From the IMG/VR virus record IMGVR_UViG_3300021254_000020, positions 160,001 to 224,000 of that record: a DNA stretch of 64,000 nucleotides. One strand, written 5' to 3'. The DNA comes from a virus. Lineage: Duplodnaviria; Caudoviricetes. A model generated the notes under the pieces. The model worked only from the letters and a program-made list of their open reading frames with translations, searched no databases and was not told where the DNA came from. Of this stretch, positions 9,931 through 47,067 are shown in pieces. A program made the position numbers and the translations under genes. The first letter of the stretch is position 1. Each line of letters starts with the position of its first letter.

Positions 9931-10071
9931 TTCAAAACCTCCTATATAGTGTATTAATCATCTGTTAGTGAGAAAGTATAGTTTTACTACCGCTTTATTA
10001 GCCTAATTGTAGGTTATGAGCCTAAAATAAATAAAAAATAAAGCCGACCAGATATACCGGTCGGCCATACT

Positions 10072-14114: not shown

Positions 14115-14654
14115 ATATGAATAGGTAGAGACCATGATATTATCTCATCTCTTTCCCCTCATTCGAACGCAGCAAGCGACTTTCATCGCACTACGCTTTC
14201 CATCGAGTATTATCCCGACTAGAGACCATTCCTCCATTCCCGTTACAGGAACTTCTTAGGTTCGATCTCCGCTTTTCAGCATAGGTTAAGATGCTTATCT
14301 CCATATGGTTTCGTCATCAATCTAAATCGACCTATACCTTTCTTTCGTTCAGATAGACCTATCATTACATACATATCCTTAGGTGCCTACTTTATCTATA
14401 TATACCTAGATAGTACCTGTAATACTATATGGGTGTTCTCAACTGCCACCTTACTAACCCACAATACATATAGATTTTAATAGTAGATTCGTGTCCCTCA
14501 CCATAGATATCTTATTGACTCCCGGTTTGTTCAACCGACTTTACCGAGCTACTAACCCTGATCTTTACAATCAACGCTAGTCGGAGATTAGAGGAGATAC
14601 TTCTAGGCGTTACCCTATCATTTTATCTCTCGGTCTACCCACACAAAATCGCAC
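14115..14654 (-). mobile_element. ORF-less group II intron (540 nt)
   Basis: 5' GTGCG; domain V AGCGTAGTGCGATGAAAGTCGCTTGCTGCGTT (~14165-14200); domain VI ending CCTATTCATAT; EBS1 GGCAGT (14442-14447) pairs with exon end ATTGCC; removal restores the frame. Confidence 0.9.
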
Positions 14655-14670
14655 GGCAATCTCCATCATA
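14655..14670 (-). CDS. RNA polymerase beta-prime N subunit, micro-exon 2 (TAT GAT GGA GAT TGC C = YDGDC)
   Basis: Supplies the missing part of the catalytic DxDGD motif; bounded by the group II GTGCG; complementary to the group I IGS. Confidence 0.82.
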
Positions 14671-14716
14671 TTTTAGGCTCACGCGCCGCAATTAGGAATT
14701 TAATGCGACACGATTT

Positions 14717-15830
14717 ATGAACGTACATTACTAAGACTACAGTATTATTATAAACACATCATAATCTAAGGTTGTTATTACCCTTTTCGGTAAACCCTCT
14801 ATATAATTCAGGATAGTTCTTGGTTATATTTTTAAAGGTTCTTCCAGTTCTTATAAAGCTCAAACTAGTTATGAACTTCTTATCATATGGAACTCCAAGA
14901 GCATTGGCTATCTGCATAGAATCCCTTCCAGCTACCATCATCTGGCATATTCTATCAACCGTAGAACCATCCCAAGTGTATCCCGATATATCATAATCCT
15001 TAGATATAGATTTCCATCGTTTTCCTGTTCTAATATCAGAAACCAGAGCAGCAAAATTCATATTATATGGAACTCCAACAATCTTAGCTATATCTGGTGA
15101 TTCCATACCTTGAGTAAGACATTGACAAATCGTATGAATCATCTTATATTTTTCAGCATTTTTGTTTACTGATACTATATGATAATTCTTTGCAATATCT
15201 TTCCAAGCAGTACCATTTCTGATATTGCTAATTAGAACTATCCATCGTCTATCATAAGGTACACCAAATTTTTCTGCTACTTGTTTAGAACTAATATTTG
15301 GATCCTCTAGCATTTGACAAATAGCATGCTTCATCTCTAATGGGAAATTAAAGATATGATCTCTATTTACATCATCGCTCAAAGAATACAACACATTATT
15401 CTGATAATCGGTCCACATAAGATTATCGAGTTTATTATGATATTTTACCTCATCTTTATGATGAACTAACTGACCATAATATGGATCCGATGTATCAGTA
15501 AGAAAAGTAATGGCTACCATTCTATGAACAAGCATCATAGCATCTTCTAATCTGCATCTAAGATATCCTTCCGGTAAAGATACTGGGTATATTTTCATCT
15601 GAGTAACCCTATCATATACGTTTCCGTAATTACTAACCAGATATCTCGGATTTAGTGGGAATATCCTAAATTCCTCATTAAGATAATATCCTAAAGTAAG
15701 AGCTCCATTAGAATAATCACTGGCTTTGTATTTATCTTGATTTTCTGCACCTGGTATAAATTCTTCCATTATATCACCTCCTTTACTATATGATTATAAA
15801 TTAACTGTAGTCTTAGTAATGTACGTTCAT
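14717..15830. repeat. perfect 27-bp inverted repeat (14717-14743 / 15804-15830) flanking the HNH ORF
   Basis: ATGAACGTACATTACTAAGACTACAGT and its exact reverse complement. Confidence 0.95.
14759..15769 (-). CDS. intron-encoded HNH homing endonuclease with three C-terminal HTH-like repeats
   Basis: YLVSNYGNV, VHRMVAITF, VHHKDEVKYHNKLDNLMW; 3x ICQ..GVPY..IR.G..W/FK.I.K.Y; AAGGAGGT RBS. Confidence 0.9.
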   Translation of the reverse strand: MEEFIPGAENQDKYKASDYSNGALTLGYYLNEEFRIFPLNPRYLVSNYGNVYDRVTQMKIYPVSLPEGYLRCRLEDAMMLVHRMVAITFLTDTSDPYYGQLVHHKDEVKYHNKLDNLMWTDYQNNVLYSLSDDVNRDHIFNFPLEMKHAICQMLEDPNISSKQVAEKFGVPYDRRWIVLISNIRNGTAWKDIAKNYHIVSVNKNAEKYKMIHTICQCLTQGMESPDIAKIVGVPYNMNFAALVSDIRTGKRWKSISKDYDISGYTWDGSTVDRICQMMVAGRDSMQIANALGVPYDKKFITSLSFIRTGRTFKNITKNYPELYRGFTEKGNNNLRL

Positions 15831-16259
15831 CAACAATTATCTAACCTTTCGGCTACCATAGACTATATCAGTCCCCCAGCATTACCTGGTAGGGTGCTAG
15901 CACTTCGCTACTAGGATCGTCAATCCGTTCGCTACAGGGAGCTGATCCCCTTAGTCGTTGAACCCCTTTCGAGGATGCTGATTGCCGATTTACTTCTATG
16001 CCCTTAGCACAGTCTATCTCTCCCTAGAAGTTGGGTATTCTACAATAGATCTGCTTTTATTTCAGCTTAGGCTATCTTTAGGATTTGTTTCTACTTTCGT
16101 AGCATGCCTACTATATAGACGATGCACCTAAAGCTTTACGATGTTCCAGCAGTTCACTAGCTCTCACTCACATATTACTATATGAGCGGACCATGATTTA
16201 GAAATTGTCTAAATCGCCCTTTTTTGTAATTTAGGCTCGCGCCTTAACAAAATTAGGGG

Positions 16260-17597
16260 GTCAGCCGCAAGTCCACTGAGGACGAATTGATCCAATGAGA
16301 GAACCGCACTGTCTGTATTGACTCCGACTACCCTCTTCCATACTATGGATTCGTAATGGATAGTAGGATTGCGGTTAATCAATACATGGATCTTATCCAT
16401 CTTAATCAGGTTGTTGAGGATATCTAGTACCCTCTGATCAAGCTGCAGTGTAGCATAATACCATTTCTTATATGCCTCAGCATATGTAATATTATAGCTA
16501 CTCTGTATGATATTGATCAATACCTGTTCTAAGAGCAATACGAGACCAGTATAGGGTAACATAACTTCGTCAGACCTCAGTTTACTATCCGGCACAATGA
16601 TAGACCGTTCAGAGAAAGCAGTACGTCCAGATATAGTAGAACGCATTATACCTCTCTTATCTGCTAATATGCGGATAATCTCATCAGAGAGTTCACTTAG
16701 CTTAACCTGCATATCCCAGAGAATCTGATTCTGTAGTTTGGGATTTCTATAGATAGAGAGAGTATCATTATTGAGTTGAGCTCCTAATGATGCTAAGATA
16801 TTAAAGGTAGCATTGGTTTTCTCGAAAGTAAACCGCTTACCTTCTACCTTAGCAATACGAAGCTGGGTGGTATAGATAGGGATAGAATGAGAGAATACAC
16901 AATCTCTATGCTGCATAATGAGATCGTATACATCCTTCTTATTTTTTCTTTTCTTTAAGAAGTATGCCAGTATCTCATCAAACTTCTCATAAAAACCCAT
17001 CATACCAAGGCTCTCATATTTAGAGTCTAATTTACTCTTCTTCTTATATCTACGAGCATTCTTTCTCTTAAAGATTTTTCTATCATATGAACTCATGGGT
17101 TTACCATCAGCATCGAGTTCGATAGCTGGTTCTAATATAGACTCCAAGTTATCTTTTCCGATGATGGAGATGAGTTCTACATAGATAGCAGGATTGATTA
17201 TATGATATTGATCCTTTAAATGGATATATCCAAAGTAGGTGAAATCATCACCTACTAATTTAGCGGGAGTTCCACAATAAGGACAGTAGAAGTTAGGATG
17301 GTCCATCACAGAATTAAATGCTCCTTGCAGATAGCCACAAGCACATTTGTATCTGTGAGAGAATGCTGCTTCATCTCCAAGCTGTCTACCAAACTTAGTA
17401 GAGAAGATAGATGTGTCACTCTTCAAGGATTTTTGAAGAGGTTGCTTTGAATCGATAATGAATGCTTGCCCAACACTCATATCTTTCTCAAACTCATTAT
17501 CAAGATTGAGTATAGACAGTTTAACGAAATAATCATATTCATTATCTCTAGGATAATGAATATTGAGTTTCACGTCTTTCAGGCTATTCTCATCCAT
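16260..17597 (-). CDS. multi-subunit RNA polymerase beta-prime N subunit, exon 1 (spliced product ~529 aa)
   Basis: Zn finger CACG..CPYCG, FGYIHL, KRGIMR..ISGRTAFSERSIIVP, INRNPTI; ends LAAD at the first catalytic Asp. Confidence 0.9.
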
Positions 17598-17599
17598 AA

Positions 17600-17857
17600 T
17601 TAATCCTCTCTAATAACCCAGTCATTAGCCAACATATCAGCTTGAGAAGCCAACCAACCAAGCTGTACTCCTCTAGTGCCTACGAAAGCTATAGCCTGAT
17701 TACCGATATCCTTATGATCAGCATTGATAATCTCACCACGAGCATTCATGTAAGAGATATTAGTGGCGAGTTCAATGTACTGATCTTTGCCATTCCATCC
17801 CATACGGGATACTCTCTTTCCTTCCTTCATTGCATTGATAGCTTCACCAAAATTCAT
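17600..17857 (-). CDS. DUF2829 / Tad2-like protein (candidate immune-signal sponge)
   Basis: MNFGEAI.AMK.GKRV.R.GWNGK...GWLASQADMLANDW signature. Confidence 0.8.
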   Translation of the reverse strand: MNFGEAINAMKEGKRVSRMGWNGKDQYIELATNISYMNARGEIINADHKDIGNQAIAFVGTRGVQLGWLASQADMLANDWVIRED

Positions 17858-18231
17858 TTTTCATCCTCCTCTAATTTACTTAACTCTTCTTTAAGATAAT
17901 ACTTACGATTAGACCAACATACGTGATTAATTAGATCAACCAATCCACTACGTGCCATGTCTTTATTATAACGGTAAACACAATTTATGAGATTTCCTAA
18001 AGTACACCGCACATCAGCTTTGTTAGTATAATCTATTTCGCTAGCACCCGATAAGTCATTGTCTATAGGGAACTTAACGAACATATCCAAATGATTAGCC
18101 ATTAATTCTATAAATGAATATGCTATCGCATAATCACTATCTCTAGGTATATCAGTACTAGCATAGATATTATCGTAAGCATCTAGATCCTTAAATAATA
18201 CCTGTCTTATGTCTTCAACAGTACCCTTCAC
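17854..18231 (-). CDS. hypothetical protein
   Basis: GTG start, GAGGAG RBS. Confidence 0.65.
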   Translation of the reverse strand: MKGTVEDIRQVLFKDLDAYDNIYASTDIPRDSDYAIAYSFIELMANHLDMFVKFPIDNDLSGASEIDYTNKADVRCTLGNLINCVYRYNKDMARSGLVDLINHVCWSNRKYYLKEELSKLEEDEK

Positions 18232-18249
18232 AATATTCTCCTCTCTTAA

Positions 18250-18525
18250 TTATAATTCTGAGTCTTTGACTGTATAATTCTCCCACTTCTTATACACGTC
18301 AACATAAGTCTGTTTGCGATCACCATCATGAGTAATCTCATAATACATACCATCGCTCACTTCAGTAGACACTAATGCTTTCCAGTTCTGAAGAGTTTTG
18401 CAGAACCAGACTATGAATACATTATCTTTTGTGATAATGAAATCATCAGTCACATCTCTATGAGCATTGAAGTAGTCTACTACTATCTGCTTAGCAGTAT
18501 TTATCATCTCATCATTCCTAGTCAT
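18250..18525 (-). CDS. DUF6275-like phage protein
   Basis: VWFCKTLQNWKALVST..DGMYYEIT.DGD....YVDVYKKWEN. Confidence 0.75.
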   Translation of the reverse strand: MTRNDEMINTAKQIVVDYFNAHRDVTDDFIITKDNVFIVWFCKTLQNWKALVSTEVSDGMYYEITHDGDRKQTYVDVYKKWENYTVKDSEL

Positions 18526-18545
18526 AGGACCTTCACCCCCTTTCG

Positions 18546-19226
18546 TTAGTCATGCATTACGTTATCGGACCAGCAATATCCGTATAACTCTTGCACCTTA
18601 TCTTCTTCCTCATAATATGTCTGATCGTATACCTTTTCTCCTCTCTCATAGACAGTATGTCCTACGAAGTTAGGCATCTCATCAGCATACTTATGATCTA
18701 TTCTCATATTGGGATTATCTTTCGCTAGCTTCTCCATTACTGGAGTGGGATCAGACCATGCTGTATTGAAAGCAATGGTATTATCATCTACTTTATACTG
18801 AGTATACGCGTCCCATTTAGTACCCCAGTTAGAGATTCTCCAATCATACCAATTTGGGAATCCATATTTCTTTTCATTCTCAAAAGATTGTTTAGCCTTT
18901 TCGAGATCAACTGTTCCATCATCAATGAGTTTTTGGGCTGCTTCCTCATGAGTTAATTTATTTTCGTTATCGTCAGCCCATGTATGAATACATTGATAAT
19001 CATCATCCTTTAAAGTTTCTCCTTTCTTCATCATTCGGTATATGTCTCTAGATAATAGTGTTCTACTACCACTAACAATATTCAATTCTTCCGGCATGGG
19101 GATAATCTTATTAAAGGAGATATATTGATTCTCCTTTTCTCCATGGATCTCTTGTAGTAATTCACTTACAGTCTTCCCCTCATCAAGCTGTTCAAACTTG
19201 ACAACGTTTCTTACATGATTTGGCAT
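18546..19226 (-). CDS. DUF1281/YubB ferredoxin-like domain protein
   Basis: MPNHVRN, FNKIIPMPEEL, WYDWRISNWGTKW, FNTAWSDP. Confidence 0.75.
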   Translation of the reverse strand: MPNHVRNVVKFEQLDEGKTVSELLQEIHGEKENQYISFNKIIPMPEELNIVSGSRTLLSRDIYRMMKKGETLKDDDYQCIHTWADDNENKLTHEEAAQKLIDDGTVDLEKAKQSFENEKKYGFPNWYDWRISNWGTKWDAYTQYKVDDNTIAFNTAWSDPTPVMEKLAKDNPNMRIDHKYADEMPNFVGHTVYERGEKVYDQTYYEEEDKVQELYGYCWSDNVMHD

Positions 19227-46949: not shown

Positions 46950-47067
46950 TTATTGTAATCCTCCCTATAGTCTCATTATCATAAATATAGTATATGATTG
47001 ACAAAAAAATTACCACTGCTCCATAGAGAAGCAGTGGCTATGGCTTATTTTAAGGTCTTTTTGTATC

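Follow-up and report, generated by a model that had tools for sequence, protein, structure and literature searches.

We found that the gene for the N-terminal part of the non-virion RNA polymerase (RNAP) beta' subunit of a phage is interrupted by a group I intron whose junction, GAC|TAT, is confirmed by sequence comparison to be non-canonical at both splice sites, with a C-G pair at the 5' site and an A as the last intron base (omega) at the 3' site. A U.G pair at the 5' site and omega-G are the textbook determinants of group I splice sites and are near-universal; introns published as exceptions continue to be classed as group I. We consider it likely that this is a live, IA2-like group I intron that would be removed at GAC|TAT through the ordinary pair of transesterifications, with its 3' site set mainly by guide pairing.

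The host gene and the register of the junction

The window, by which we mean the whole 64,000-nt stretch that was analysed, comes from a complete AR9/phiR1-37-like phage genome of 266 kb, and the stretch is present in gut metagenomes. The ORF starting at 17597 on the minus strand, on which all window features described here lie unless stated otherwise, matches RNA_pol_Rpb1_2 in a profile search as well as the non-virion RNAP beta' N-terminal genes of phiR1-37, AR9/PBS1 and staphylococcal jumbo phages. The gene is present as a single copy, and a search across the complete genome for a second one returned none. Exon 1 (17597-16260) ends at GAC, the first Asp codon of the DxDGD motif, the 16-nt micro-exon 2 (14670-14655) encodes YDGDC plus one nucleotide, and exon 3 occupies 14114-13879. 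Joining the three yields a protein of 529 aa with 57-64% identity to intact homologues along its full length. The group I intron between exon 1 and the micro-exon, delimited by intron-free alleles and orthologues, is 1,589 nt long and runs from C16259 to A14671; the span of 14655-16262 given in a preliminary description of this DNA is therefore narrowed, its positions 14670-14655 being the micro-exon.

That description had left three in-frame junctions open, namely GAC|TATGAT (DYDGD with omega-A), an omega-U option producing DHDGD and an omega-G option producing DHGD, and only the first is retained. Near-identical phages lacking the group I intron read GAT TAT GAT GGG GAT TGC C and then enter the same group II intron, and comparison with orthologous introns, canonical ones at the same codon boundary among them, fixes GAC|TAT. 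In many relatives the first Asp codon is immediately followed by a group I intron, in most cases one with U.G and omega-G. Among the 50 homologues that show DxDGD, the motif is DFDGD in 43 and DYDGD in 7, and never has H; as x is always F or Y, and as a possible fourth P1 pair is missing in the related introns L075, L064 and L073, the omega-U and omega-G options are unsupported. Intron-free alleles, the F/Y-only motif and the orthologous introns together place the intron at 16259-14671 and point to DYDGD as the product. An overlooked pair of canonical sites was also sought in the window and in L075 (range -40..+80 / -80..+20), and no combination of exon U and omega-G restores DxDGD in either.

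The two unusual letters already noted, the C that ends exon 1 (C16260) and the non-G before the micro-exon (A14671), are real, and sequencing error is rejected. DNA contigs from run X1 (36x), which may be the source of this DNA, and from X2 span both junctions and show no deviating letter, and two more assemblies, L071 and L072, differ from the window at one ORF position only. Since these contigs and assemblies probably stem from one campaign, they exclude assembly error and nothing further.

The micro-exon is followed by an ORF-less group II intron (14654-14115, identified with Rfam), which is also present in alleles without the group I intron and is identical to theirs at 537 of 540 positions. 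A candidate EBS1 (14447-14442) matches the end of the micro-exon, and a genome search detected no reverse transcriptase. A 9-mer equal to the guide sequence of the group I intron occurs in domain 6 (14138-14130); related group II introns lack it, and it is probably there by chance. More broadly, introns cluster at the hot spot formed by the DxDGD codons (L001, L007, L012, L058, L064, L067, L074, L077), where group I introns follow the first Asp, the second Asp or the Gly codon, with two of them in tandem in L074, and group II introns occupy several positions shortly downstream, leaving micro-exons of ~10-18 nt. Immediately upstream of the RNAP gene, 17600-19226 contains Tad2-like, DUF6275 and DUF1281 genes, a possible anti-defence cluster.

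Core, guide pairing and signs of activity

The Rfam group I model RF00028 had no match in the window, even at E 10, and the assignment to group I is based on the helices. We observe a P3-P7 pseudoknot core, P4-P6, P8, P9 and the P, Q, R and S elements, together with an internal guide sequence (IGS) that pairs with both exons (P1, P10); P2, P3, P4, P6, P7, P7.1, P8 and P9 are all fully paired. Upon alignment and folding, P2 is predicted at 16188-16165 and is followed by the core (16161-15896), which leads from the 5' strand of P3 (16161-16156) through P4 (16151-16146/15981-15976), the P5 extensions, P6, P7.1 and P7.2 to the 3' strand of P3 (15901-15896). P7 (15958-15952 with 15865-15860) encloses P8, and its guanosine-binding site is canonical, with a bulged C15957 followed by the pair G15956-C15861. 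P9 (15855-15842) has a GAAA loop, after which a perfect 27-bp helix (15830-15804 with 14743-14717) loops out a 336-aa ORF located in P9 (15769-14759). This ORF encodes a putative homing endonuclease with weak NUMOD4 and HNH_3 matches, under the Pfam cut-off, followed by HTH repeats; its homologue P0127 matches HNH_3 at E 1.7e-6, and empty alleles of the intron site exist. The IA2 features read from the alignment are P2, P7.1 (15951-15936) and a second hairpin before P3', and on P7.1 and that hairpin we describe the subgroup as IA2-like. The intron looks mosaic, its P9 and ORF being nearer to those of L073.

Further observations concern the core of related introns. The first P5 pair beside the J4/5 wobble receptor (16143-16139, 15990-15984) is, as read by eye from the alignment, mismatched in the window, L063, L075, L007 and L064, and intact in L068, L073 and L077; the mismatch may have to do with how C-G is tolerated at the 5' site. 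Within the single intron at L068 5333-7000 there are three S-like elements, possibly nested or duplicated ribozyme pieces.

The IGS lies directly before P2, at 16197-16189, as first described, and reads ATCATGGTC. The complementarity to the junction reported earlier likewise holds, with nine contiguous pairs, one of them U.G, to the ligated GAC|TATGAT. G16191 pairs with exon C16260, so that the U.G of the 5' splice site is absent, and 16197-16192 form P10 with 14670-14665. The two extra P1 hairpins that had been noticed are predicted at 16258-16217 (hairpin 1, with a GCGA loop) and 16215-16195 (hairpin 2), the 3' arm of the latter overlapping the P10 part of the IGS. Of the nine introns whose P1 is expanded, six follow a C (window, L007, L064, L073, L075, L179) and three a U (L063, L068, L077), whereas no short-P1 intron (four lineages) follows a C; alleles without an intron at the site divide equally into GAC (15) and GAT (15). 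The C-G register is unambiguous, because P1 of L064, L073 and L075 is not extendable past the C and L064 has omega-G. It looks as though the constraint for U was relaxed in the expanded-P1 lineage, and a link between this relaxation and the extra hairpins is only suggestive. The two-hairpin P1 also occurs in the canonical U.G/omega-G members L068 and L077, which makes it a trait of the lineage, unspecific to the odd ends.

Several comparisons bear on whether the intron is live. P3 of the window and P3 of L063/L075 carry different bases at four positions in each strand, with pairing kept throughout. The guide helix retains 8-9 contiguous pairs with the ligated exons in the window, L063 and L075, and the IGS changes with the exon, with TAT facing AUG in the window and TTT facing AAA in L063/L075. 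Exon 1 differs from that of L075 at 163 synonymous and 35 non-synonymous codons, and from that of L004 at 61 synonymous codons and 1 non-synonymous codon. The covariation of IGS and P3, the normal guanosine site in P7 and the purifying selection on exon 1 indicate that the intron is probably functional, although that selection could be older than a recent arrival of the intron. The missing consensus bases at both ends would also suit a degenerate intron, as had been suggested, in a dead gene or a defective phage; we regard this as very unlikely, given that the core helices are intact and covary between the omega-A introns, the guide tracks the exon, the synonymous excess is strong in a single-copy polymerase subunit gene, and the intron is present in phages of three different data sets. 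Metatranscriptome contigs, from two runs on the same samples, fall only inside the group II intron (14158-14477 and 14413-14633), leave the junction uncovered and are uninformative there. Synonymous differences from L004 affect 61 of the 446 codons of exon 1 (17597-16260) and only 3 of 86 and 6 of 174 in neighbouring genes, a density that looks like a long co-converted or recombined tract arriving with the intron.

The 3' splice site and a possible origin of omega-A

We next consider omega. Of the introns whose end could be placed, those of the window, L063 and L075/L076 terminate in A and 14 others in G; the three omega-A introns, two of which are close, amount to about two independent observations. 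The contig of L063 stops 5 nt into exon 2, L075 lacks the group II intron and its exon reads straight into FDGDCLN, and L073 and L179 are without the 3' intron end. All four combinations of 5' base and omega occur at this one site, U/G in L068 and L077, C/G in L007 and L064, U/A in L063, and C/A in the window and L075. Other canonical U.G/omega-G introns at the same codon boundary (the L020 group, L050, L067 and L074) have the IGS in the same register and the same core. An intron-specific pattern recovered no more omega-A members from IMG/VR, a broader motif search recovered 100 other introns, none with omega-A at this site, and a genome-contig search a single unrelated locus. The omega-A introns do not form one clade in the core tree, in which support is low.

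P10 is strong in the omega-G members L007, L064 and L077 as well, and a strong P10 therefore probably preceded omega-A and let omega drift. No P9.0 is adjacent to omega in the three omega-A introns; all have a weak GG/CC helix 4-5 nt upstream (~-3.5 kcal/mol, predicted). In the window only, P1 can be extended to GACC/GGUC, and the G at exon position +4 has a perfect-looking P9.0 (AU/AU) and a 4-bp P10, which makes mis-splicing to a frameshifted or DHGD product possible. The same features could be taken as a 3'-site switch, an idea raised earlier, in which choice of the +4 G (14667) would yield a dead subunit, through a frameshift or through DHGD with a shifted 5' site, and choice of A14671 a live one. 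The AU before this G does match the AU after P7. That G, however, opens the second Asp codon and is dictated by the encoded protein, the same G occurs in L063 and L075 without P9.0 and P10, so that the arrangement is not conserved, and there is no evident regulator, all of which makes a switch highly improbable.

What the comparisons favour is altered splice-site selection, one of the suggestions made at the outset, in the form of a shift to guide pairing. In the first step, exogenous guanosine held in the intact P7 site would attack after C16260, in a short P1 where C-G replaces U.G and the location of the site with respect to P2 defines it. In the second step, hairpin 2 would partly open and the 6-bp P10 would stack on P1, giving a 9-bp guide helix across the future junction; A14671 would take the omega position with weak recognition, and the guide pairing, not omega-G, would choose the 3' site, with the GG/CC helix 5 nt upstream of omega perhaps replacing P9.0. 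Group II splicing, before or after, would complete the 529-aa subunit with DYDGD.

The 3' tail (14712-14671) starts with a terminal hairpin (14712-14682), which is followed by CC and a run of A whose last base is omega-A, and aligns both with the tails of L063 and L075 and with the reverse complement of the P1 extension. The tails of the three omega-A introns are homologous (0 of 500 shuffles), and their last ~35 nt match the reverse complement of the P1 extension of L007, L064 and L063 (p 0.002, 400 shuffles), scoring 34-37 against that of L007, with which the window tail shares a 12-nt exact match. None of the eight omega-G tails tested matches the reverse complement of the P1 extension, and the canonical introns at the same site (L020 group, L050, L067, L068, L074, L077) are without such a tail. 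This contrast between omega-A and omega-G tails suggests that the original 3' end gave way to an inverted copy of the P1 extension, in a lineage that would already have had an expanded P1 and a strong P10. Such a copy is a plausible origin of omega-A, its U-run having become the terminal A-run, and provides a concrete, testable route to that base.

The motif at the intron ends is quasi-palindromic. It is found at both ends of the window intron and in two free copies in the genome (0 of 60 Markov shuffles), one intergenic at 10002-10029 on the plus strand and a second, also intergenic, at about 46960-46990 of genome G000; a scan of IMG/VR returned two matches, both unrelated. The copy at 10002-10029 directly follows a terminator-like hairpin and points the other way from the copies in the intron.

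With such ends, the same junction might be reached by delivering the 3' site end-to-end, the tail pairing with the P1 extension or a protein bridging the motif at both ends in place of omega-G/P9.0 recognition. Duplex energies between the 5' and 3' ends beat shuffles in the omega-A introns (p 0.053 in the window, 0.003 in L063, 0.033 in L075) and not in four omega-G introns (0.2-0.8), the predicted L063 fold pairs both ends across the 3' site, and the motif stands at both ends of the window intron besides its free copies. When a tail is aligned with the other end of its own intron, however, the match is not significant in the window (p 0.25) or L075 (p 0.10), local hairpins win in the folds, and hairpin 1 of L075 has drifted from the motif with compensatory changes. 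The motif also occurs in either orientation, as would be expected of a past duplication or of a repeat at the DNA level more than of a site recognised in RNA. We therefore find it doubtful that the two ends still pair and judge end-to-end delivery unlikely; if true, it would be a new 3' splice-site selector in the omega-A lineage.

Alike hairpins at both ends also recall, by resemblance only, the ends of IS200/IS605 elements, and raise removal by transposase-mediated DNA excision, with IStron-like ends, or by ribozyme cleavage and a protein RNA ligase. Genome-wide searches detected no Y1 transposase, RtcB or reverse transcriptase (a search for a T4-type ligase lacked a positive control and carries no weight), the cargo is HNH-like, unlike the TnpA and/or TnpB of an IStron, a scar that shifts the reading frame would remain after recombination between the repeats, and the joined form appears in no DNA contig of the samples; we regard either route as exceedingly improbable. 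An IS605-type guide/cleavage pairing at the intron ends, sought by eye, gave no consistent fit.

Comparison with known systems

The four combinations of ends on related cores form a natural panel with which one could measure how far guide pairing replaces both determinants. The requirement for a 5' U and omega-G limits target choice in engineered trans-splicing and RNA circularisation, on which this panel bears. Among bacterial rRNA introns, the group I intron Cbu.L1917 of Coxiella burnetii reportedly ends in A. In the searchable literature, older subscription papers being outside its scope, we came across no intron described as having both exceptions.

The natural loss of either consensus base has been described in Diderma nuclear rDNA, where in vitro self-splicing is retained by L2066, which has omega-A, and by S529, which has G:C at the 5' site (PMC3679873). 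Each of these introns lacks one consensus base, whereas the window intron lacks both, and it further differs in its exon C/IGS G pair, its location in a phage mRNA, its IA2-like core and its putatively mobile ORF. The hexacoral mitochondrial intron ND5-717 has omega-A and undergoes exact exon ligation in vivo (PMC6545197, PMC8146996). Like the window intron it resides in an essential protein gene, with splicing seen in ND5-717 and deduced for the window; ND5-717 is, however, obligatory and vertically inherited and carries genes in P8, whereas the window intron is present in some strains and absent from others, has an HNH-like ORF as cargo and is additionally without the 5' U. In a survey of Bacillus cereus introns, virtually all follow U, and recA alleles with C are without the intron (PMC2504315). 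The host gene, the catalytic motif and the HNH type of cargo are shared by the group I intron of AR9 g270 (non-virion RNAP beta'-N) with its HNH gene g271 (subunit: PMC5449584); unlike the window intron, it lies three codons further, after the Gly codon, follows U and has a short P1. Overall, omega-A and the loss of the 5' U.G pair have each been published separately, and comparative sequence analysis indicates that the phage intron combines the two.
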